Made by a program: the position numbers and the translations under genes. From a virus (Duplodnaviria > Caudoviricetes): a DNA stretch of 64,000 nucleotides. Below the pieces are notes generated by a model. The model did not search any database. It saw only the letters and a list, made by a program, of their open reading frames with translations, and was not told the DNA's origin. The DNA lies in the IMG/VR virus record IMGVR_UViG_3300037067_027643, positions 128,001-192,000 of that record; one strand, 5' to 3'. How positions within the stretch are numbered: the first letter of the stretch is position 1; every line of letters begins with the position of its first letter. Below are positions 41,487-52,085 of the stretch, in pieces.

Positions 41487-42113
41487 ATGAAAATAATAAA
41501 ACCAAAATATATAATACTATCAACAATTAATGGTATAGATATTATAAAAAATATTGAACGAGCTGGAAGAACTTGTTATAAAAGTGAAGATAAAATAACA
41601 GATGATAGTGCAGCTAAATTTATAAGAATGCTATTAGAAAGAGGTCATGAATCTGTTCTTGAACATCAAACACTATCTATACTTTTCGTTAATGATAGAG
41701 GAGTTAGTCACGAAGAAGTTAGACATAGAATAGCTAGCTTCTCACAGGAGAGCACAAGATTCATCAATTACACTAAGGAAAATAAAGGTGGAGAATGTAC
41801 TTTTATTGATATTAAACCTCATTTAATTAATCCAGCTGTATCTTTTGATATTTGGTTTAATACTATGTTATATTGTGAAAATTCGTATAAATTAATGATA
41901 GATGCTGGAGAAAAACCAGAAATAGCTAGATCAGTTTTACCAAATTCTCTTAAGACGGAAATCGTAATATCAGCTAACATGAGAGAATGGAGAACAATAT
42001 TTAAACAACGTACATCTAGTAAAGCACATCCACAGATGAGAGAATTAATGTGTCCATTATTGGATGAACTTAAAACAAAAATACCAGTTATATTTGATGA
42101 CATAAATTATTAA
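41487..42113 (+). CDS. thyX: FAD-dependent thymidylate synthase
   Basis: GHESVLEH, RHRIASFSQESTR, ARSVLPNS, AHPQMR. Confidence 0.95.
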   Translation: MKIIKPKYIILSTINGIDIIKNIERAGRTCYKSEDKITDDSAAKFIRMLLERGHESVLEHQTLSILFVNDRGVSHEEVRHRIASFSQESTRFINYTKENKGGECTFIDIKPHLINPAVSFDIWFNTMLYCENSYKLMIDAGEKPEIARSVLPNSLKTEIVISANMREWRTIFKQRTSSKAHPQMRELMCPLLDELKTKIPVIFDDINY

Positions 42114-42117
42114 AATC

Positions 42118-42411
42118 ATGAAACCTTGTACAATTATTTTAGACAATGATATTCAAATATCAGCTAATATAGAAACTCCACTTCCAAAAATTAAGGAAGA
42201 TAATACTTGTGAATGTATGACATTGCATTGTGAAGATATAATAACATTTCAGACATTTATTGATTCTATTGTTAAAGATTTAAAAATAATTGTAAAATAC
42301 GATTGTGGTACATGTACAATTAGAAATTATGATTTATTAGATATATCTAAAAATTATAAAGATTTAAGTATTATGTTACGTTTTAAAGAGATGTTAACCA
42401 GTTTTGAATAG
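42118..42411 (+). CDS. Hypothetical protein
   Basis: ORF track. Confidence 0.45.
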   Translation: MKPCTIILDNDIQISANIETPLPKIKEDNTCECMTLHCEDIITFQTFIDSIVKDLKIIVKYDCGTCTIRNYDLLDISKNYKDLSIMLRFKEMLTSFE

Positions 42412-42420
42412 TAAGTACAC

Positions 42421-43335
42421 ATGATAGAAAATAATACAATAGCAGTTGTTATATCAACTCACAATAATATAAATTATCTAAAGTTATTATATAGTTCAAT
42501 TATTAATAATTTTACAATTGTTGATGATATAATTATATATGCAGAAAATTGTACAGATGGAACAAATGAATGGTTGAGTAATATTTTTGTAACAAAGGAT
42601 AAACCTAGTTTATATGTATATATTCAAAATGATGTGATTAATCCCGGAATTTCCAGTGGAATTAATAAAGCCATTAGTATGGTAGATACAGATTATTTCA
42701 TCTTACTTCATTCGGATATGTATGTAACAAAAGGATATGATATAGAACTGTATAATTACTTTACAAAAGAAGAATATCGAGATAAAAGATTAATTGTTTC
42801 AGGATGGAGAGCAGAACCAAATATATGGGGAAATAATAGTAATACTCCTGGATTAGTTACCGCCCCAATTTCTTATTTTGGAGAATATTATCATAATTTT
42901 AGACAAGAGTTATTTAATGAATGGGCAATAATATTTTCAAAACAAAATCGAGATAAAACAATTAGAAACATGATGGGTGCTGGAGGATACATGATGAAAA
43001 AATCTGATTGGGATTACTTAGGAGGAAATGATGAAATTTTCAACCCAGCTTGTTATGAGGACATTGATTTATGTTTAAGAGCTCAATTAAAAGATTTTGA
43101 ATTAATTACAACATGCAATACACTAATTTATCATTTCTCGGGACGGGGATCATGGTATCCTACTGATAACATTGGAAAGAAAAGTGAAAGACAACAAACA
43201 GCAGAACAAACTGGAATGATTAAATGGTTAAATAAATGGGGAGAACGTTTTGAAAGAGATGAAAGCGATTGTCCAATATTAACCAAAACAATGAAAAACT
43301 TTATTTTGAAAAATAGAAACAATTTTGTATATTAA
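42421..43335 (+). CDS. Glycosyltransferase family 2
   Basis: VVISTHN, CTDGT, LLHSDM, GGNDE.F...YEDIDL..R. Confidence 0.85.
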   Translation: MIENNTIAVVISTHNNINYLKLLYSSIINNFTIVDDIIIYAENCTDGTNEWLSNIFVTKDKPSLYVYIQNDVINPGISSGINKAISMVDTDYFILLHSDMYVTKGYDIELYNYFTKEEYRDKRLIVSGWRAEPNIWGNNSNTPGLVTAPISYFGEYYHNFRQELFNEWAIIFSKQNRDKTIRNMMGAGGYMMKKSDWDYLGGNDEIFNPACYEDIDLCLRAQLKDFELITTCNTLIYHFSGRGSWYPTDNIGKKSERQQTAEQTGMIKWLNKWGERFERDESDCPILTKTMKNFILKNRNNFVY

Positions 43336-43349
43336 AAATAAAATATAAA

Positions 43350-44429
43350 ATGAAAACAGTTTGTATATATCATAGTGCAGATTTAGATGGTTGGTGTTCC
43401 GCTGCCATAGTTAAACATTGGTATATTAAAAATAATAAAGATTGTATTATATTTAATAAATCAAACTCAAATATAATGACTAATGAGGATAAAATTGTAT
43501 TTGATGATAGAGTTCAAGGAAAAGAAAATGAATCCGAATTATACTTCATTGGTTATAATTATGGAAATGAAATTCCAGATTTATCTGAATATAATCGAGT
43601 AATAATGTGTGATATAAGTTTTCCAGCTAATATAATGAAACAACTCCATAGAAAACTAACAGCACAAAAGGGTTATGTGGGAAATGGAAAAGAAAAAACA
43701 CTCGATAATTTTATTTGGTTAGATCATCATATATCAGCAATAAAAGATATGGAAAAGGAATACCCAGTAGGTAATAGTGTTCCTATATCATTACCATCAG
43801 GACTAAGGGATACAAAATTTGCAGCATGTGAATTAACTTGGAGATACTACTTCCCTAAAAAAGAGATGCCAGAACTTGTAAGATTACTAGGTAGATACGA
43901 TTGTTTTGGCCACAGAGGGAGTAGCGAAGAACAAACTGTATTTGAATTTCAATACGGAGCAAGAAGTGTGATTAGTAATTATAATGAATGTTTTGATGTT
44001 TTAACTGATAATATATATTATGGAAATGAAACTATAGAAAATATTTTATCTGATGGACAGTCAATATATAGATTTTTATGTACTGATGCAATAGCTAGCT
44101 ATAAAAATGGTTTTAAAGTAATATTATCAGAAGAAGTAGCTGGATGTACAGAAGATCCAAATAAACAATTTGAAGATAGAGAATTCATTTGTATTAATAA
44201 AGAAAAATTTAATCCTATTAATTTTGGAATAAATTATCACAAGGATGGCTATGATGGTTGTATGTGCTTCTATTTTGATGGTAAAGAATATAATTGTAGT
44301 ATTTATAATGACAATGGAAAAGTAGATTGTTCTGTTATAGCTAAAGGGTTTGCGGGAGGTGGACATCAAGGAGCTGCTGGTTTTCGTTTGAATCGACAAC
44401 AATTTGAAGAATTAATTAAAAACAAATAA
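43350..44429 (+). CDS. DHH/DHHA1 phosphoesterase
   Basis: YHSADLDG, CDIS, WLDHH, GGGHQGAAGF. Confidence 0.9.
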   Translation: MKTVCIYHSADLDGWCSAAIVKHWYIKNNKDCIIFNKSNSNIMTNEDKIVFDDRVQGKENESELYFIGYNYGNEIPDLSEYNRVIMCDISFPANIMKQLHRKLTAQKGYVGNGKEKTLDNFIWLDHHISAIKDMEKEYPVGNSVPISLPSGLRDTKFAACELTWRYYFPKKEMPELVRLLGRYDCFGHRGSSEEQTVFEFQYGARSVISNYNECFDVLTDNIYYGNETIENILSDGQSIYRFLCTDAIASYKNGFKVILSEEVAGCTEDPNKQFEDREFICINKEKFNPINFGINYHKDGYDGCMCFYFDGKEYNCSIYNDNGKVDCSVIAKGFAGGGHQGAAGFRLNRQQFEELIKNK

Positions 44430-44435
44430 TAAATC

Positions 44436-45197
44436 ATGAAATATTTCTATGACATCGAATTTATCGAGGGAACACAAGATAAAACCATATTTGGGTTAGT
44501 TTATAAAGTTACCAAACCTACAATTGATATAATTTCAATTGGAATTATTAGCGAAGACAATAGAGAGTATTATTCTATTAGCAAAGATTTTAATCTCAAA
44601 GAAGCTTGGAACAGATATGACATCAAACAAGAGTGGTATTCTATTGATGAAAATACTCAATCTACAAGAAATGTAAAAGTTTACTGGATTCGAGAAAATG
44701 TTCTAAAACCAATATTCGAAGAACTGTCTGTTAGATTTTGGGGACTCACTAATATTTTTGGAAATAAACATGAATTCGAATATAGTAAATTAGAATTTCT
44801 TATTAATACTTACGGTAAACACAATGAAGAAATAGCAAATGAAATAAAAAACTTTGTTAATCCAAGTAAAGAAGAAGTAAATAATATATCATTTAGTGAA
44901 TATCAAGAAAAATATAGTAAAAAAGAATTATATGGTTATTATTCCTCTTACGATCATGTAGCACTTTGTTGGTTATTTGGTAAAATGATTGATCTACCAA
45001 AAGGTTTCCCAATGCACACAATTGATCTCAAACAGATATTAGACGAAAAACAAATATGGAATGAAAAAACTGGGTATTATAAAACACTAGATCAAATAAA
45101 ATCATTACCAAATTATCCAACCCAAGAAAATGAGCATAATTCTTTGGAAGACGCTAGATGGAATAAAAAACTTTATGAATTTTTAAAAACAATATAA
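44436..45197 (+). CDS. DEDDh 3'-5' exonuclease (Rv2179c-like)
   Basis: FYDIEF, YSSYDHV, EHNSLEDARW. Confidence 0.8.
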   Translation: MKYFYDIEFIEGTQDKTIFGLVYKVTKPTIDIISIGIISEDNREYYSISKDFNLKEAWNRYDIKQEWYSIDENTQSTRNVKVYWIRENVLKPIFEELSVRFWGLTNIFGNKHEFEYSKLEFLINTYGKHNEEIANEIKNFVNPSKEEVNNISFSEYQEKYSKKELYGYYSSYDHVALCWLFGKMIDLPKGFPMHTIDLKQILDEKQIWNEKTGYYKTLDQIKSLPNYPTQENEHNSLEDARWNKKLYEFLKTI

Positions 45198-45889
45198 ATG
45201 AGAGACGCAGCTATAATAGAAAAAGATACCACTTGTCCATTATGCAATAAGGAAATAACAGTTGAAGTAGAAATAGATCAGTATGACGTTGAAACAGTTA
45301 TCGATAACATGCATGAATCAACAAAAGAAGACATAGTAGAATACTGTGACATTTATAGAGATGATCATGAAACTGAATTGGGAGATGTTTTAAATTTTTT
45401 ATATAAATGTAGTAAATATGATAAATTAGAAATATTAGAAAATTTAAACGATGAAGGAATATCTTATATATCAATTTATTCATTAGATGATCAATATAAA
45501 TTACAAGCTATAAAAGAAATCTGGAACGATATTACAGTTGAACAATTAGAATCGTTTTGTAATAATTTTAAAATTGAATTAAAAAGTAAAAGAAAATGAC
45601 AACAATTTCAAAAAGTACAGATATTGATATTGAGTTAAGTGATGTAATAGATTTTATTGATGATGCAAAACACTATGAAATAACTGATATTATAAAACAT
45701 TGTAAATATTTTATCGAAGATAATTTAGAAGAATTTATAGATGTAGACGATTTTGGTATAATAACAAAAACATTAAATGATCAATTTAAATTACAAGCTA
45801 TAAAAGAAATTTGGGAAGATTTGAATGTAGAAGAAGTTGAAACATTTGTAGAAAATTTTAAAACTATATTAAAAAATAGAAGAAAATGA
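45198..45889 (+). other. Two tandem acidic paralogous CDS (45198-45599, 45596-45889)
   Basis: SLDDQYKLQAIKEIWNDITVEQLESF vs TLNDQFKLQAIKEIWEDLNVEEVETF. Confidence 0.75.
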
Positions 45890-46158
45890 AAAAGGAAAAT
45901 AAAATTAACATAATTATAAAAGGTTGTTGCGGTAGTGGTAAATCAAGAATTTTATATCTTATTAAAAACACATTAAGAAAAGAAGGTTTTGAAGTCGATC
46001 ATGAATTAAATGAAGATTTTGATAACGAAAAAGATTTTAATGAAATAATGGAATCAAATTATCAAAACTGTTTAAACACAATAAAATCAAGAACCACAAT
46101 TACTATAAAAGAGAAAAATAAAATTCACGATTTGACTAAAGATCTAAATGAAGAATAA
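45886..46158 (+). CDS. Short P-loop-containing protein
   Basis: IIIKGCCGSGKS in only 90 aa. Confidence 0.5.
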   Translation: MKKENKINIIIKGCCGSGKSRILYLIKNTLRKEGFEVDHELNEDFDNEKDFNEIMESNYQNCLNTIKSRTTITIKEKNKIHDLTKDLNEE

Positions 46159-46411
46159 ATCAAACTCTTATTATATATTTCTTCCAGAAGATGATTTAGA
46201 AGATGTAGAGTACGACGAACACTTACTTGGAGAAATTGATTGTAACAATACATTCTGGACAGGAACAGGTATAAGAATATTAATGAATATAACTAAACAG
46301 CATCCAGAATTAATTGAATCTGTTATTATCAAAGACCAAAATAATAAAACAATAACAGTTGAACAATTTATGAAAACAATCGAAAAATTAAAAATAAAAA
46401 ATAGCATTTAA
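46148..46411 (+). CDS. Hypothetical protein
   Basis: ORF track. Confidence 0.5.
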   Translation: MKNKSNSYYIFLPEDDLEDVEYDEHLLGEIDCNNTFWTGTGIRILMNITKQHPELIESVIIKDQNNKTITVEQFMKTIEKLKIKNSI

Positions 46412-46419
46412 ACAATATA

Positions 46420-46929
46420 ATGCCAAAAAAATATATATTCTTCTTAGAAAGTGATATTAAACGAGCAATGAAGTGTACACAGTCTAATATGGCCGCTGCT
46501 CGTTATCTTGGTATCAACTATCTTACTTATAAGAAATATGCTAAGATGTATTTTGACGAAAATGGAGTCTCATTATTTGACTTACATTTAAATCAATCTG
46601 GGAAAGGAGTAGTAAAACCATGGATGAGTGGAGGTTCTCATAATAAAACATTTCCGATACACGGTATATTAAATAATCAGTTTCCAAAATATCCATTACA
46701 AAAATTAGGACAAAGATTAATAAGAGAAGGAGTAATGTTACCTAGATGTGCTTTATGTGGATGTGAAGAATTTAGAATTACTGATAAAAAATATCCATTA
46801 ATATTAACTCAAAAGAATAATGATGAACATGATTATAGAATTGAAAATTTAGAATTTTTATGTTATAATTGTTATTTTTTAACTGTAGGTAATTTCGATA
46901 AAACTTTATTAAAAAATATGAAGGGATAA
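46420..46929 (+). CDS. HTH plus degenerate HNH-like protein
   Basis: SNMAAARYLGI (HTH); CALCG...RIENLEFLCYNC; the catalytic His is not evident. Confidence 0.6.
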   Translation: MPKKYIFFLESDIKRAMKCTQSNMAAARYLGINYLTYKKYAKMYFDENGVSLFDLHLNQSGKGVVKPWMSGGSHNKTFPIHGILNNQFPKYPLQKLGQRLIREGVMLPRCALCGCEEFRITDKKYPLILTQKNNDEHDYRIENLEFLCYNCYFLTVGNFDKTLLKNMKG

Positions 46930-46932
46930 AAT

Positions 46933-48148
46933 ATGAACAAAGAAGAGGTAGCTAAAAAAGTAATTGACATAATTAACAATGCAGACTATGTTGATCCGGC
47001 CGAATACATTTATGATGGTCAAAAATTTTTAGATGTTACACTACGAAGAGGAGAAGATGTTTCTGGACATTTATTTGATTTATATAATACATTATTAGAT
47101 CCGAATTCTTGGTGTGAAATTGATAATTCTTTACAACCTGCTATAGATTTATTAAAACAGTATTTTGATGAAAATCCATATAAAAATACAAACGAAACAA
47201 ACATTAATTTTCATCAAGTTGTCGAAAATAGTCAATGTTTTGATAGTTTAGAACAGATATTAAATTATGTGTCATTTATTAGTAAAGATGAATATCTAAA
47301 AATAGGGTTAGAAAATACTATTAAAAATGGATATAAATTAGTAAAGGAATAAATATGTTAATAACTTTAGTATTTGTTTTTTGTATGTTATATTTAGTTA
47401 TTTTAATTAACATAAGAAGATCAAAATATTGTGATTTATATATTAATATTAATAAATTATGTAGCGAATATAATCAGTGGCAATTTAGAAATGGATTAAA
47501 TTATTTTGATAATAAATTTGAAAACGCGTATCACTTTTGTAGAAATGAATTCCCCTTAGAAATTACTAATAAATTATTGTTTTCACTTAAAAAATTAGAT
47601 ATGAAAACATTATTTACTAATGATATGAAAATCAAATTTGAAAAATATTTAATGGATAATAGATAATAATTAAAATATAATTTTACAAAATGGAAGAAAC
47701 ACCAAATAATAAAAAATCAAAACGACCAGTAAATACAAATACTACAAAAGATAATAGATTGTCAGATAAAGATATTAATCAAATAACAGCTACTAAAATA
47801 ATATATAGTAATGCTAATGAACTACATAAATTCTTTGAATCAAATAAGGATAATACCAAAGAATTTATTATAAAAGAAATAGCTAAAAATTTAAATAATA
47901 TTAAAAAACAAGATATTATATTATTTGAACTGGAAAGTGTAATGTATAATAATAGTAATATTGTTTTGAACTTACCAAGAACTGAATGGGTAAATGCGTT
48001 GGAAGATATACGTAAATATTATGAAAGTAAATTAGAATCGATTAATGCACAACAAACCGATTTTGAAAAATGTACAGAAATAAGAGAATTAATAAAAAAA
48101 TTAAATAGAAAAATAAATAAAAATAACAAATTAAAAAAGGAGAAATAA
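46933..48148 (+). other. Three hypothetical CDS (46933-47352, 47355-47666, 47690-48148)
   Basis: ORF track. Confidence 0.5.
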
Positions 48149-48152
48149 AATT

Positions 48153-48383
48153 ATGAGAACAGACGAATTTATCTATTACAATGTAAATGTAAGTTTTAAA
48201 GTAGAAACAGATGAAGGTAAAGAAAAGAAAATCAAAGAAAAATATCTTGTAAAAGCCATCGGATGTACCGACGCAGAAGCAATAGTTACTAAAGAGTTTA
48301 CTGGTACAAACGATTTTAAAGTTGAATCAATTGCAGAAACTAAAATTATCAATGTTTTAGAAGCCGATATGAAAGATGAATAA
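48153..48383 (+). CDS. DUF4494-like small protein
   Basis: KKIKEKYLVKA...TDAEA, IAETKI. Confidence 0.6.
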   Translation: MRTDEFIYYNVNVSFKVETDEGKEKKIKEKYLVKAIGCTDAEAIVTKEFTGTNDFKVESIAETKIINVLEADMKDE

Positions 48384-48789
48384 TAGTGAAGCAACTATTC
48401 GATTTGAAGAATTTTTAAAATCAATTGGAGGTATAGAAAATGGGATGTATCTCAATAGACCTCCAATTGTTGTTCGTTATTTCTTTTCTGTAGGAGATGG
48501 TTGGTTACCAATGATTCAAGAACTTATCGAAAAACTTATTCTTTTAGGTTGGGATAAAAAGATTTGTCAAGTTAAAGAAAAGTTTGGTGGACTTAGATTT
48601 TATGTAGTTAATAATACCAAAGAAATTTCTGATTTAATCAAAGAATACGAAGTAAAATCATTTAAAATTTGTGATGTATGTGGGTGTGACATTTGTAAAA
48701 CGAGTTCTGTAAATGGCTGGATATATTCTAGATGTGAAAAACATAGACCAGAAGAACTTACATCGTGTTTACAGTCAAAAGATAACTAA
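48376..48789 (+). CDS. Phage protein with QVKEKFGGLRFY motif and Zn ribbon
   Basis: GDGW, QVKEKFGGLRFY, CDVCG. Confidence 0.65.
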   Translation: MNNSEATIRFEEFLKSIGGIENGMYLNRPPIVVRYFFSVGDGWLPMIQELIEKLILLGWDKKICQVKEKFGGLRFYVVNNTKEISDLIKEYEVKSFKICDVCGCDICKTSSVNGWIYSRCEKHRPEELTSCLQSKDN

Positions 48790-48791
48790 CT

Positions 48792-49655
48792 ATGAAAAAT
48801 ATATTTATAAAAAATTGTTGTGATGGATTGTATAATTCATTTGATGTGCATTTTACAAGTGTTTGTGATAATAAATGTAATCATTGTATTGATTTAAAAT
48901 ATAATGGTTTTGGAATTAAAAAACCAGATGTAGATTCAATAGTAAATACAATTATTGAAAATCAAAATGGATATGATGATGTTTTATTTTTAGGAGGAGA
49001 ACCATGTATTTATTTAAAGGAATTGGTTGATTGTATAGAACAAGTAAAATCAAAAACAAATTTAAAAATATATGTAACAACATCTGTTCCTAAAATATGT
49101 AAAGATCGATTTGATTTATTTACGAAACTACTCGAATTAGTTGATGGAATAAATTTATCAGTACAACATTATAAAGAAGAGATTGCAGATAAAATTAGAA
49201 ATGTATCATCAAAATATAATAGACAAGAATTTTATAATAGTTTATCTTATAAAGAAAAAATAAGAATAAATTTAAATATTGTAAAACCATATTTATATAC
49301 AAAAGAAGATATTACAAATTGTTTGATACATTATGATAAAATGGGATTTAATGAAATAAAACTTTCAGAAATACAACATGGAAAAGATTATTATGTTTCT
49401 TTTGAAAAGATGTTTAATATTAAGTTAGGATCACCATTTTATAGTGGTTGTCAAAAATATTTAAAAATGGATAAAATAATTCCAAATTTTAAAACACCTG
49501 TATTATTAAAACGTTCATGTTTTATGTGCGAAGAAACATTGAAAGCTTCTTTTATGGACGGTGTAAAAGTTGGATATAGATTATTTAGACCAAATAACAA
49601 AAATAAATATGGTGTTATTTATGAAAATGGATGTTTAACAAATAAATGGAGATAA
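48792..49655 (+). CDS. Radical SAM enzyme
   Basis: CDNKCNHC (CxxxCxxC), LGGEP; extra SCFMC near the C-terminus. Confidence 0.88.
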   Translation: MKNIFIKNCCDGLYNSFDVHFTSVCDNKCNHCIDLKYNGFGIKKPDVDSIVNTIIENQNGYDDVLFLGGEPCIYLKELVDCIEQVKSKTNLKIYVTTSVPKICKDRFDLFTKLLELVDGINLSVQHYKEEIADKIRNVSSKYNRQEFYNSLSYKEKIRINLNIVKPYLYTKEDITNCLIHYDKMGFNEIKLSEIQHGKDYYVSFEKMFNIKLGSPFYSGCQKYLKMDKIIPNFKTPVLLKRSCFMCEETLKASFMDGVKVGYRLFRPNNKNKYGVIYENGCLTNKWR

Positions 49656-49659
49656 AATT

Positions 49660-49767
49660 ATGTTTACAAGAATTTTAAGAAAAGTAGTAAAGAAATTAGA
49701 AAATAGTAGAAACGGACATTGTTCTGGTGATATTGATGGAGGTGGTGGAACTGGACATTGTTATTAA
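49660..49767 (+). CDS. 35-aa candidate precursor peptide MFTRILRKVVKKLENSRNGHCSGDIDGGGGTGHCY
   Basis: Hand-translated; ATG 4 nt after the rSAM stop; below the ORF-track cutoff. Confidence 0.7.
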   Translation: MFTRILRKVVKKLENSRNGHCSGDIDGGGGTGHCY

Positions 49768-51653
49768 TAGTTCCGTACCCGTCCGTATATATCGCTTTGA
49801 GGGAAGCGAATTTCCCAGATCGATGGATCGGCCGATGTGTAAATTATGCCGTTTCTTTTGGAAGTCTCTAAATTGTAAATGTTTGGAACATAGCCCTTTA
49901 GCTGATCAAATTGATTGTAAAAGCGAAGAGAAATCACACTTTGAACTCCCACAGTATTAGCAATTACTTGAACTACTTCGTTTTTTATGATTGGCTGATT
50001 GATTTGCCATTTATCTATATCAAAGTAAGATTTTACATTATCTATCGCTCTTAATAATACTTCACTTGCAATATAGTTACTTAATACAGTTATTTCAAAC
50101 GACACAGCAATATTAATTACAAAGGCATCCTTTATATTAATACTATCAGTTAACATTTTAAATTTACTTAGATAAGTTTTTAAATTTTCTTTAATGGCTG
50201 TATTTGTTTGTACCAGTTGTTTCTGACTGTTATAAGATAATATATATAAATTTAATGCTAATGGATTTGCTATTCGTTGACTATAATCAAAAAAGTTTAA
50301 TTGATCATCTTGAGTAATATATGCTTTAGCTATGCTTCCAAATTTAGCTGGCATAGAATAAGTTCTGATAATATAATCTTCCAATGTAACAGCTCTATCT
50401 TGAGCAATAAAGAAACTCATAGCATTATCTCTTATCTCATCTACTGATTCAGCTCCTCTACCACCTGTAGCATTATTTAAATTGGTACATGATACTGATT
50501 GTTTTATTAATGCTAATACATTTGGGTTAATAGATTGATCACTTGTAAAGTATTCTATATTAGAAATTGTTTGAAGTGTATTTGCTGGAGTATTTGATTG
50601 TATCCCTCCTCCTACTGTATATTTTACTGTTAAAGTAGTATTAACTGGAACCTGTCCATAACTCTTTGTATATAAGAAATTAGCTGGATCCCATGTAGTA
50701 TTGATTTTACTTAAACCACCCATAAATGGAAGTCCTACATTATCTGGATTAGGAGTAATTATCTCATCTGGCATTACACTATTACCACTTCCAAATCTCA
50801 GTTCCAGTTTATTATCTGATGTATATCTTGTTATAAATCTTTTGCTTACTTTTAATTGTTTTAATAGATAAGGAGTTTGATTTTTATATGTTGCTAGTTC
50901 TGGACTGTTAGTTGTTGTATTAGGTTGATCTATAAATATTGTATCCTGTGCTAAGAAAGGAACTTCATACCAATTATTACCATTACTATCTACCACACTA
51001 TCAATTGATATAATACTGGTATCTGGTATTGTTACTGATATATAAGGATCACTAGCACCGAAGTTGAATTGAATTGTTTTCTGAACTCCAGCTTCTACTT
51101 GTACTTGTTTCATTAACAAATAGTAATCTATTATCCCTGTTGTTTCGTTTAATTTATATACAGTAATATCAGTAGAATCATTTGAACCAGAAACAGCAAA
51201 GTTAATTGTATCTGTGGTATGAAATATTACCTGACTATTTTCATTAGAAGTAATTTCCATATTAGGTTTAATAGCTAAAGCATAACTCCAATCCGGTGTA
51301 GTTGAATTTGCTATTTGTATTGATGGTATTATTTGATATATGTTTAAAGTTGTTCTTGCTGGATATGTAGGTCTTGGTTTATATCCCATTGATTGAGCTA
51401 TATCTAATATGTTTGCTCTTTCTGTTGTTTGGCTAAATAAGTTTTCTTTTAAATTATAATCAGTATAATAAGATAACACATCACCAATATATGATCCCAT
51501 TTCTATGAACATCATATTTGGATCACCTTCGTTTAAATCATTGAAAGTGTTCTTATAGTAAGTCTTAGCAAACGCTATAAGATTTTCTTTAAACTGATTA
51601 AAGTCTTTCCCTAGGTAATTAATGTCTTTATTATTTTGATTATTGTTTGCCAT
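49764..51653 (-). CDS. Baseplate wedge subunit (T4 gp6-like)
   Basis: YLGKDFNQFK, MGYKP, LRFGSG, VKYTVGGG, ATGG...ES, QDRAVTLEDY. Confidence 0.9.
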   Translation of the reverse strand: MANNNQNNKDINYLGKDFNQFKENLIAFAKTYYKNTFNDLNEGDPNMMFIEMGSYIGDVLSYYTDYNLKENLFSQTTERANILDIAQSMGYKPRPTYPARTTLNIYQIIPSIQIANSTTPDWSYALAIKPNMEITSNENSQVIFHTTDTINFAVSGSNDSTDITVYKLNETTGIIDYYLLMKQVQVEAGVQKTIQFNFGASDPYISVTIPDTSIISIDSVVDSNGNNWYEVPFLAQDTIFIDQPNTTTNSPELATYKNQTPYLLKQLKVSKRFITRYTSDNKLELRFGSGNSVMPDEIITPNPDNVGLPFMGGLSKINTTWDPANFLYTKSYGQVPVNTTLTVKYTVGGGIQSNTPANTLQTISNIEYFTSDQSINPNVLALIKQSVSCTNLNNATGGRGAESVDEIRDNAMSFFIAQDRAVTLEDYIIRTYSMPAKFGSIAKAYITQDDQLNFFDYSQRIANPLALNLYILSYNSQKQLVQTNTAIKENLKTYLSKFKMLTDSINIKDAFVINIAVSFEITVLSNYIASEVLLRAIDNVKSYFDIDKWQINQPIIKNEVVQVIANTVGVQSVISLRFYNQFDQLKGYVPNIYNLETSKRNGIIYTSADPSIWEIRFPQSDIYGRVRNY

Positions 51654-51659
51654 TTAGTT

Positions 51660-52085
51660 TTATCCGTTGGTAATTGGTAATGTCAGAGTATCTTTTTTAT
51701 TATATAGTTCAACTGAAAATTCAATATGTATATTTAATGTGTATTCTATTTTTGGATCGTTTGTAATTGAAATATCATCTATTGTTACAAATGGCATCCA
51801 TCTCGATACAGAATTTCTTACTAATGTTTCTATATCTATTTTATTTTTATTAGTGTCGTTTTCAAATAACCTTCTTCTTAATCCACATCCATATTCTGGA
51901 AGCATTATTCTTTCTCCTGGTTCTGTAAGTAGTAGATTTTTTAAATTGGTTTTTATTTGATCAAATGTTAAATAGTTACTCTTGAAATTCATATTGTTGT
52001 CAGTAGTAATAGGTAATGATAATCCGATAGCTATATCAGTTTCAAAATCTAAGGGATTAATACGAGTTTCAACAATATTTGACAT
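51660..52085 (-). CDS. Baseplate gp25-like (GPW/gp25) protein
   Basis: NLKNLLLTEPGERIMLPEYGCGL, WMPFV. Confidence 0.9.
   Translation of the reverse strand: MSNIVETRINPLDFETDIAIGLSLPITTDNNMNFKSNYLTFDQIKTNLKNLLLTEPGERIMLPEYGCGLRRRLFENDTNKNKIDIETLVRNSVSRWMPFVTIDDISITNDPKIEYTLNIHIEFSVELYNKKDTLTLPITNG

Follow-up and report, generated by a model that had tools for sequence, protein, structure and literature searches.

The DNA described here, positions 48792–49767 of a 64-kb window (the whole stretch analyzed) within a virus record of 285,744 bp, holds two genes on the plus strand that form a unit of about 970 bp. The first encodes a radical S-adenosylmethionine (SAM) enzyme and the second a peptide of 35 residues, presumed to be the maturase and the precursor of a peptide-modification system. 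The stop codon of the enzyme gene (TAA, 49653–49655) is separated by a 4-nt gap (49656–49659) from the peptide ATG at 49660, and a GGAG or GGAGG also precedes the peptide ATG in related loci. At its other end, the peptide gene overlaps the stop of a convergent baseplate-wedge gene by 4 nt. A previous, sequence-only reading had described a CxxxCxxC radical SAM gene followed after 4 nt by an open reading frame (ORF) of 35 residues with two GHC motifs, ending on the stop of the baseplate gene. This description is confirmed in its details: CDNKCNHC occupies enzyme residues 25–32, the enzyme matches PF04055 (Radical_SAM) at 2e-11 (44.8 bits against a cut-off of 29.5), the translation of the small ORF is identical, the two motifs lie at peptide residues 19–21 and 32–34, and the overlapped gene matches PHROG 219. 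The features and their positions are collected in Table 1.

Table 1. Features of the enzyme–peptide unit and its convergent neighbor, in window coordinates (A1, alignment of enzymes; A2, alignment of peptides)
Feature	Position	Strand	Basis or remark
Radical SAM enzyme gene, presumed peptide maturase	48792..49655	+	ORF, 287 aa
N-x-C-D-G motif, N-terminal (N8, C10, D11 invariant)	48813..48827	+	Alignment A1; C10 is a candidate auxiliary-cluster ligand
CxxxCxxC codons (C25, C29, C32; CDNKCNHC, residues 25–32)	48864..48887	+	Ligands of the SAM-binding [4Fe-4S] cluster
Twitch-like C-terminal part, residues 219–287	49446..49652	+	Conservation and model; predicted leader docking surface
GGAG, 8 nt before the peptide ATG	49648..49651	+	Within the last codons of the enzyme gene
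Peptide gene, presumed precursor, 35 codons plus stop	49660..49767	+	ORF, profile match, purifying selection
Leader-like part, residues 1–18, basic amphipathic helix	49660..49713	+	Family pattern M-[YFW]-T-[KR]-x-L-R-K
Core-like part, residues 19–35: GHC, Gly-rich spacer, GHC, Tyr	49714..49764	+	Alignment A2, codon test
First GHC codons (residues 19–21)	49714..49722	+	Peptide gene
Second GHC codons (residues 32–34)	49753..49761	+	Peptide gene
Baseplate-wedge gene, convergent (context only)	49764..51653	-	PHROG 219 and 10646, 3.5e-20

On the sequence evidence, the small ORF is a genuine gene, because its motif codons change only synonymously and because the ORF is kept beside the enzyme gene far above chance. 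Among 23 distinct peptide genes of the GHC type, the six motif codons vary only synonymously, with a proportion of synonymous differences (pS) of 0.88 and of nonsynonymous differences (pN) of 0, four Gly, two His and two Cys codons being in use. Leader codons 2–8 of these genes give a pN/pS of 0.35. Scored against a profile of 28 related peptides, the window peptide reaches an E-value of 1.1e-15, and its gene is the sole profile match of its kind in the whole 285,744-bp genome. Alignment A2 (28 peptides) has H20, C21, G32, H33 and C34 as invariant positions, with near-invariance at M1, T3 and G19, whereas the residue following the last Cys varies (Y, S, N, D, H, G or none). Searches of Pfam, NCBIfam (E ≤ 1) and PHROGs return no match for the window peptide. 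A promoter and terminator scan of the AT-rich region 45500–50500 returned 55 promoter-like sites, against 41.3 ± 6.7 in shuffled sequence, and no terminator, and in DNA of this composition it carries no information.

Pairing of the two genes is a general property of the enzyme family. Homologues of the enzyme number 936 at E ≤ 1e-3 in a clustered protein collection. Clustering at 50% identity gives 304 representatives, of which 63 score below 1e-30. From IMG/VR, a profile search brought in 45 further loci, down to ~29% identity. A pair was counted when an ORF started within −90 to +130 nt of the enzyme end, carried a Cys 0–4 residues before its stop and had at least two Cys motifs in its tail. 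Such an ORF lies downstream of the enzyme gene in 58 of the 62 loci of the first set; when the criterion is applied to randomly chosen positions in these loci, 26 of 1220 (2.1%) are positive. At L057 and L060 a Cys-motif ORF is found directly upstream of the enzyme gene, which brings adjacency to 60 of 62 loci. The remaining exceptions are L062, rejected as a family member (24% identity, E 1e-5, an outgroup radical SAM gene), and Lak-A2, where a shortened copy is present. This copy (L015:3395-3739) stops at 114 codons without the two C-terminal GGC motifs (compare L016:3368-3829), a shortening due to a frameshift or to an assembly difference.

The same picture emerges from an independent metagenome set, scanned with the L050 enzyme of the deepest clade as seed. 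All 15 usable loci carry an adjacent peptide ORF, 11 of them downstream and 4 directly upstream (L071–L073 and L076). Gene order flips across the family, and the adjacency of enzyme and peptide is kept. Among closer relatives, the same type of ORF follows the enzyme gene in 14 IMG/VR loci (enzymes 64–79% identical) and in 5 contigs from bacterial metagenome-assembled genomes (enzymes 68–73% identical), and the genes farther on differ. These five contigs, L019–L023, are filed under Deltaproteobacteria, Clostridium, Mycoplasma, Eubacteriales and Lachnospiraceae; L019 matches IMG/VR locus L003 over the stretch compared, and all five are probably phage contigs binned with bacteria. No third conserved gene (protease, exporter or immunity) accompanies the pair in the 62 loci, the next gene cluster being present in 10 of them. 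The check proposed by the sequence-only reading, namely to collect homologues and translate the adjoining DNA, has therewith been run: nearly every member down to ~29–35% identity has an adjacent short ORF whose N-terminal part is helical and whose C-terminal core bears Cys motifs. The expected co-occurrence holds for a Cys-motif peptide in general, while GHC is only the variant of this clade.

Throughout the family the peptides share a helical N-terminal part, Cys in a small-residue context and a last Cys at or near the C-terminus. The core motif varies with the enzyme clade, as GHC, GCH, GGC or GCG repeats, with 2 to 7 Cys motifs per peptide. Peptides of the window's clade have two GHC motifs, with 4–15 residues between the two Cys and 0–3 residues after the last one. 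In short-leader peptides the first core Cys falls at residue 15–23. Four motifs occur in peptides of 58–62 residues (L030, L031, L034, L035 and L056), GCH occurs twice in the L050 group, L058–L061 and L071–L073, the peptide of L077 has four CH motifs, and HC and CH are mixed in L048, L049, L075 and L076. The ORFs of L038–L046, of ~90–125 codons, combine a long leader with five to seven G-C-G motifs and have no His. In Lak-C1 (153 codons) and Lak-B1 (166 codons), the ORF right after the enzyme gene ends in two GGC motifs, again with no His. Leader length spans ~15 to ~140 residues, and is put at 150 residues for the Lak peptides. A single enzyme gene is followed by two precursor genes in tandem at L012:3855-4053; both have the same leader pattern, but the spacers between their GHC motifs differ.

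When mapped on a maximum-likelihood tree built from 50 enzymes, the peptide types are clustered, with 9 changes against 21.3 in shuffles, a value reached in 0 of 200, and the long-leader GCG and GGC types fall into one clade with 100/100 support. Because relatives share labels, this clustering is read as joint inheritance of the pair and not as evidence of co-adaptation.

Examples of fusion are found in three representatives, in which a Cys/His tail is attached to the enzyme itself. In P0125 (346 residues) a coiled-coil-like linker leads into an HDCH...GHC tail, while the fused tails of P0238 and P0148 (361 residues each) carry three CH motifs and one CH motif, respectively. For P0125 and P0238 the fusion reads as an uninterrupted ORF in the contig; as each was seen on a single contig, an assembly error is conceivable. 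At L010:3780-3830, an A-run close to the 3′ end of the enzyme gene differs by 1 nt, which makes the enzyme and peptide frames read as one protein; the cause may be a sequencing error in the homopolymer, or this may be how fused forms arise naturally. In L048 (3782-3958), the start of the peptide ORF falls within the 3′ end of the enzyme gene but in a different frame, with a coiled-coil-like linker resembling the tail of P0125; here a fusion made by frameshift is conceivable.

The enzyme is a compact member of its superfamily. Besides PF04055, the only Pfam match is PF13353 (Fer4_12, 2e-7), and no SPASM or PqqD model, the latter representing the RRE (the recognition element of RiPPs, peptides made by the ribosome and modified after translation), is matched at E ≤ 1. 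In alignment A1, which spans 50 representatives at 28–64% identity, the invariant positions are N8, C10, D11, C25/C29/C32, G68–P71, P100, S123, E193, C220, C243 and K259, with G219, R241 and D256 nearly so. Residues G68-G69-E70-P71 form an invariant SAM-binding motif of the GGE type. Three further Cys beyond the cluster motif are thus invariant, C10, C220 and C243, of which only C220 and C243 lie after the core; C246, in the CFMC of the window enzyme, is not conserved.

An AlphaFold2 model of the enzyme has a mean predicted local distance difference test score (pLDDT) of 95.2 and a predicted template modeling score (pTM) of 0.92. It shows a partial TIM-barrel fold that matches many solved radical SAM enzymes with VIA-align Z-scores of 13–18. 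The nearest solved structures are SuiB (18.0), MoaA (17.6), viperin (17.4), CteB (16.7) and the pyruvate formate-lyase activating enzyme, PFL-AE (16.5), five matches tied within ~1.5 Z units; PqqE is also among the fold matches (14.2). The alignment with SuiB covers 244 residues at a root-mean-square deviation of 3.8, model residues 11–287 lying on residues 103–369 of the chain. Foldseek ranks CteB first (E 3.2e-9, TM-score on the query, TMq, 0.60). In a sequence profile search against solved structures, viperin-like enzymes come first (1.5e-16, over core residues 16–188 only) and SuiB scores 2.1e-10. The BFVD library of viral structures gives generic radical SAM matches only (TMq ≤ 0.58). Taken together, the enzyme is placed within the SPASM/twitch–viperin–MoaA part of the superfamily and outside its described families. 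Two specific identities were rejected: viperin, with 29.7 bits against a cut-off of 180 for NF038283 and 17.8 against 450 for TIGR04278, and glycyl-radical activase, with 30.1 against 131 for TIGR02495 (NrdG2), 21.3 against 232 for TIGR02493 and no conserved partner in the 62 loci.

In the model, strands at 221–224 and 237–240 form a hairpin with C220 and C243 at its two ends, followed by a helix at 254–265. This predicted order of C220, hairpin, C243 and helix fits the layout of a twitch (half-SPASM) module. Since the three extra Cys are invariant, conservation and secondary structure suggest a putative auxiliary [4Fe-4S] cluster held by C10, C220 and C243, with one open iron. The first barrel strand of the model starts at residue 16, and no PqqD model is matched. 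The absence of an RRE and of a full SPASM domain, already noted in the sequence-only reading, is accordingly borne out by the lack of a model match, by the small number of invariant C-terminal Cys and by the position of the barrel near the N-terminus.

How the two products could interact was addressed by co-folding the enzyme (alignment A1) and the peptide (alignment A2) with two clusters and SAM, alongside three controls. The interface score ipSAE is 0.78 (0.80, 0.74 and 0.78 in individual runs), against 0.02 for the best control. The ipSAE mark is reached by 58 of 80 solved complexes and by 2 of 110 mismatched pairs, a calibration made with other alignments and no ligands, so that these counts hold only roughly for the present complex. 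For the partner, pLDDT values are no lower than 53, and at least 36% of the contacts are common to the runs. In the model, peptide residues 2, 3, 6, 7, 9, 10 and 13–15 lie on enzyme residues 244–264 with an expected error of 0.8–2.5 Å, peptide residues 20–22 and 34 come near enzyme residues 8–10, 18, 195, 220 and 240, and enzyme residues 8–10 touch peptide residues 10 and 21. The predicted complex supports direct binding of the leader helix by the enzyme.

With moderate confidence, the pair can be read as a phage-borne two-gene module for RiPP-like peptide modification by a radical SAM enzyme lacking an RRE. Since nearly all relatives of the enzyme show the pairing, in small phages as well as in Lak megaphages, it very probably represents a viral system for producing a modified peptide that has not been described before. 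The earlier proposal of a minimal phage RiPP gains support from the conserved adjacency, from the leader/core layout and from the score of the co-fold relative to its controls. The peptides also have substrate-like features, namely 2–7 Cys motifs, spacers of 4–15 residues, short leaders and the tandem precursors of L012. According to the proposed mechanism, the 35-residue peptide would be the substrate of the enzyme. Its leader helix (residues 2–15) would dock on enzyme segment 244–264, replacing the absent RRE, and thereby guide the C-terminal core, which bears both Cys motifs, into the barrel beside C10/C220. One [4Fe-4S] cluster, on C25/C29/C32, would bind SAM, and a second, auxiliary cluster would be held by C10, C220 and C243; the radical chemistry would be centered on the core cysteines, a substrate thiolate being bound to the open iron of the auxiliary cluster as in CteB.

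We infer both the covalent modification of the peptide and the kind of reaction involved. A thioether of the sactionine or ranthionine type, closing a ring from one motif to the other, has roughly one chance in three; by analogy it is favored because the nearest peptide maturases make such rings and because the three-Cys cluster with an open site would resemble that of CteB, and it is kept at that level because no acceptor residue is conserved. Alternatively, the chemistry may be formylglycine formation, epimerization or a new reaction. Since no protease, exporter or other conserved partner gene accompanies the pair, the site of action of the product is probably within the infected cell, unless lysis sets it free.

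Several points weigh against this interpretation. The evidence, including the modeled complex, would fit a peptide that is merely bound as well as one that is changed. The enzyme has neither the RRE nor the 7-Cys SPASM that are hallmarks of characterized Cys-crosslinking maturases, its best sequence matches among solved structures are the viperin-like enzymes, and these act on nucleotides. The pair in the window ends a block containing genes of nucleotide metabolism (ThyX, DHH and exonuclease). Beyond Cys no residue is family-wide, so that no fixed crosslink acceptor can be named, and the auxiliary cluster is a proposal drawn from conservation and predicted secondary structure. Finally, the fused forms and the paired Cys/His motifs would also fit a metal- or cluster-binding tail.

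The last point leads to the main competing reading, which is unlikely: the peptide could be a partner of the enzyme and not its substrate. It would then be a small metal- or iron–sulfur-binding subunit or tail that docks by its helix and supplies the fourth ligand of the auxiliary cluster or an electron-transfer center of its own, the true substrate of the enzyme being found elsewhere (a nucleotide or a protein). Two Cys and two His make up a Rieske- or zinc-like ligand set. Such a role would agree with the three independent fused forms, with the one cluster site that the three invariant extra Cys leave open, with the modeled position of the peptide Cys beside C10/C220 and with the nucleotide-related matches and location mentioned above. 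However, a ligand set should have a fixed geometry, whereas the two Cys are separated by anything between 4 and 15 residues and both HC and CH orders occur. The Lak and GCG-repeat forms lack His, peptides have 2 to 7 Cys and leaders of ~15 to ~140 residues, and L012 has tandem paralogous peptide genes. Variable spacing, number and leaders together with tandem genes are habits of RiPP precursors, not of subunits. Fusion itself does not single out a partner, as fused and split forms coexist in the borosins, a true RiPP class.

A distinctly less probable alternative is that the peptide serves as a sacrificial scaffold, from which a Cys-derived cofactor or metal chelator is cut out by a peptidase of the host or by an unlinked one of the phage, as for PqqA/PqqE and MftA/MftC. 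In its favor, the last Cys lies 0–4 residues from the C-terminus in nearly all forms, and the Lak, GCG-repeat and several fused forms even end on it. In length the precursors match the short ones of PQQ and mycofactocin, and no export genes are conserved nearby. Nor, on the other side, is any peptidase or further tailoring gene conserved nearby, and the residue after the last Cys is not conserved. Moreover, the presence of at least two Cys motifs in nearly all peptides, and of up to seven, points to several modifications and not to a single excised unit.

According to a last idea, the operon would end in a frame open by chance, or in a non-coding element, and the enzyme would be viperin-like or an ordinary activase of the NrdG or PFL-AE type. 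This idea can appeal to the Joint Genome Institute (JGI) labels, which name part of the homologues ‘organic radical activating enzyme’ and others ‘pyruvate formate-lyase activating enzyme’, and to the weak NCBIfam matches to NrdG2 and prokaryotic viperin, but its probability is negligible and it is refuted, as far as sequences can tell, by the synonymous-only variation of the motif codons, by pairing in 58 of 62 loci, by NCBIfam scores far under their cut-offs and by the lack of a conserved glycyl-radical enzyme gene in the 62 loci.

If the RiPP-like reading is extended to the whole family, the chances appear about even that the pair represents a new virus-encoded class of ribosomal peptides. 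Such a class would be defined by a minimal maturase without an RRE, with a twitch-type cluster (one N-terminal and two C-terminal Cys) and with its own C-terminal helix reading the leader helix, and by undescribed Cys-centered radical chemistry. The module would be ancient in tailed phages of anaerobic habitats, from ~55-kb genomes to 550-kb Lak megaphages, and would have diversified into the GHC, GCH, GGC, GCG-repeat and fused forms. Its product would serve infection, for example by binding metal or by blocking a host function.

Anaerobic samples, among them gut and rumen, are the source of the pairs, with human gut assemblies and the Lak phages of Prevotella represented; such habitats suit an oxygen-sensitive enzyme. 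In the window, the pair closes a plus-strand block and then converges on a baseplate operon. The plus-strand genes at 41487–45197 comprise ThyX (PF02511, 2e-42), a family-2 glycosyltransferase (4.2e-11), a weak DHH/DHHA1 match and an Rv2179c-like exonuclease domain (7.7e-7), and look like an early or middle block of nucleotide metabolism. Just upstream of the enzyme gene, on the same strand (48376–48789), is a gene for a 137-residue protein whose C-terminal part is rich in Cys (C-x2-C-x-C-x2-C, followed by C and H). The protein has weak matches only, to the NCBIfam LIC10235 family (0.0025) and to a PHROG homing endonuclease (0.046), and is not conserved with the pair in other loci. On the opposite side, the gene after the baseplate-wedge gene is gp25-like (PF04965, 7.5e-16). 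In general, the neighbors of the pair differ elsewhere. In L038–L046, the GCG-repeat loci, the pair stands beside homologous gp25-like and wedge genes in the same direction, while those of the window (49764–52085) are convergent and the peptide types differ; this shared baseplate neighborhood may reflect common phage ancestry or a link to the baseplate.

To our knowledge, radical SAM peptide maturases are described almost only from bacteria, nearly all of them using an RRE to read the leader and SPASM for the chemistry, and we know of hardly any ribosomal peptide natural products in phages. Radical SAM-modified ribosomal peptides as such are known, and what is new here is the architecture of the enzyme, the precursor family and the viral carrier. 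A much smaller enzyme appears to manage without both RRE and SPASM, in a large family that extends to the Lak megaphages of the human and animal gut. With only two genes, the module lends itself to a direct test in which both are co-expressed and the peptide is examined by mass spectrometry. Should a modification exist, the module would offer a new architecture of leader recognition, possibly new Cys chemistry and a first handle on how viruses use such peptides. No published description of this family was found in a literature search whose coverage of subscription journals is thin, and PMC11118758 contains none.

Among known systems, those of the ranthi- and sactipeptides (CteB–CteA or ‘SCIFF’, PapB–PapA, AlbA and SkfB) are similar in that a radical SAM enzyme stands beside a short precursor made of a leader and a Cys core. 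CteB, the top Foldseek match, is also among the nearest structures in VIA-align (Z 16.7). The open iron of its auxiliary cluster (work on 5WGG/5WHY) reportedly takes a substrate Cys. In contrast to these maturases, the phage enzyme has neither an RRE nor a 7-Cys SPASM and counts 287 residues against about 450, and its leader is predicted to bind the C-terminal helix instead of an RRE. The phage precursors have no conserved acceptor (Asp, Glu or other), and they are phage-carried, with no protease or exporter. The SCIFF precursor model is not matched in NCBIfam at E ≤ 1, and the window peptide has two Cys, against six in about 45 residues.

The best VIA-align match, SuiB, is a peptide maturase with a leader-bound precursor, SuiA (streptide); it differs by its RRE and full SPASM and by linking Lys to Trp. 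As this match is tied within 1 Z with MoaA and viperin, it shows only a shared fold subgroup. PqqE/PqqA and MftC/MftA likewise combine a very short precursor with an adjacent radical SAM enzyme and modify the extreme C-terminus. These enzymes have an RRE and SPASM, act on Glu/Tyr or Val/Tyr and belong to larger operons with peptidases and further enzymes, none of which is conserved here. The borosins (OphMA type) offer an analogy of architecture only, with fused and split precursor forms in one family; their enzymes are SAM-dependent N-methyltransferases, not radical enzymes. In the case of the twitch enzymes BtrN and MoaA, the likeness concerns the predicted layout of a single auxiliary-cluster module, a Cys-flanked hairpin followed by a helix, and MoaA covers model residues 11–287. 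The auxiliary cluster of MoaA is held by three Cys and keeps an open iron for the substrate. The substrates of BtrN and MoaA are small molecules and their Cys spacing differs from that of the phage enzyme, in which the ligand C10 would be N-terminal.

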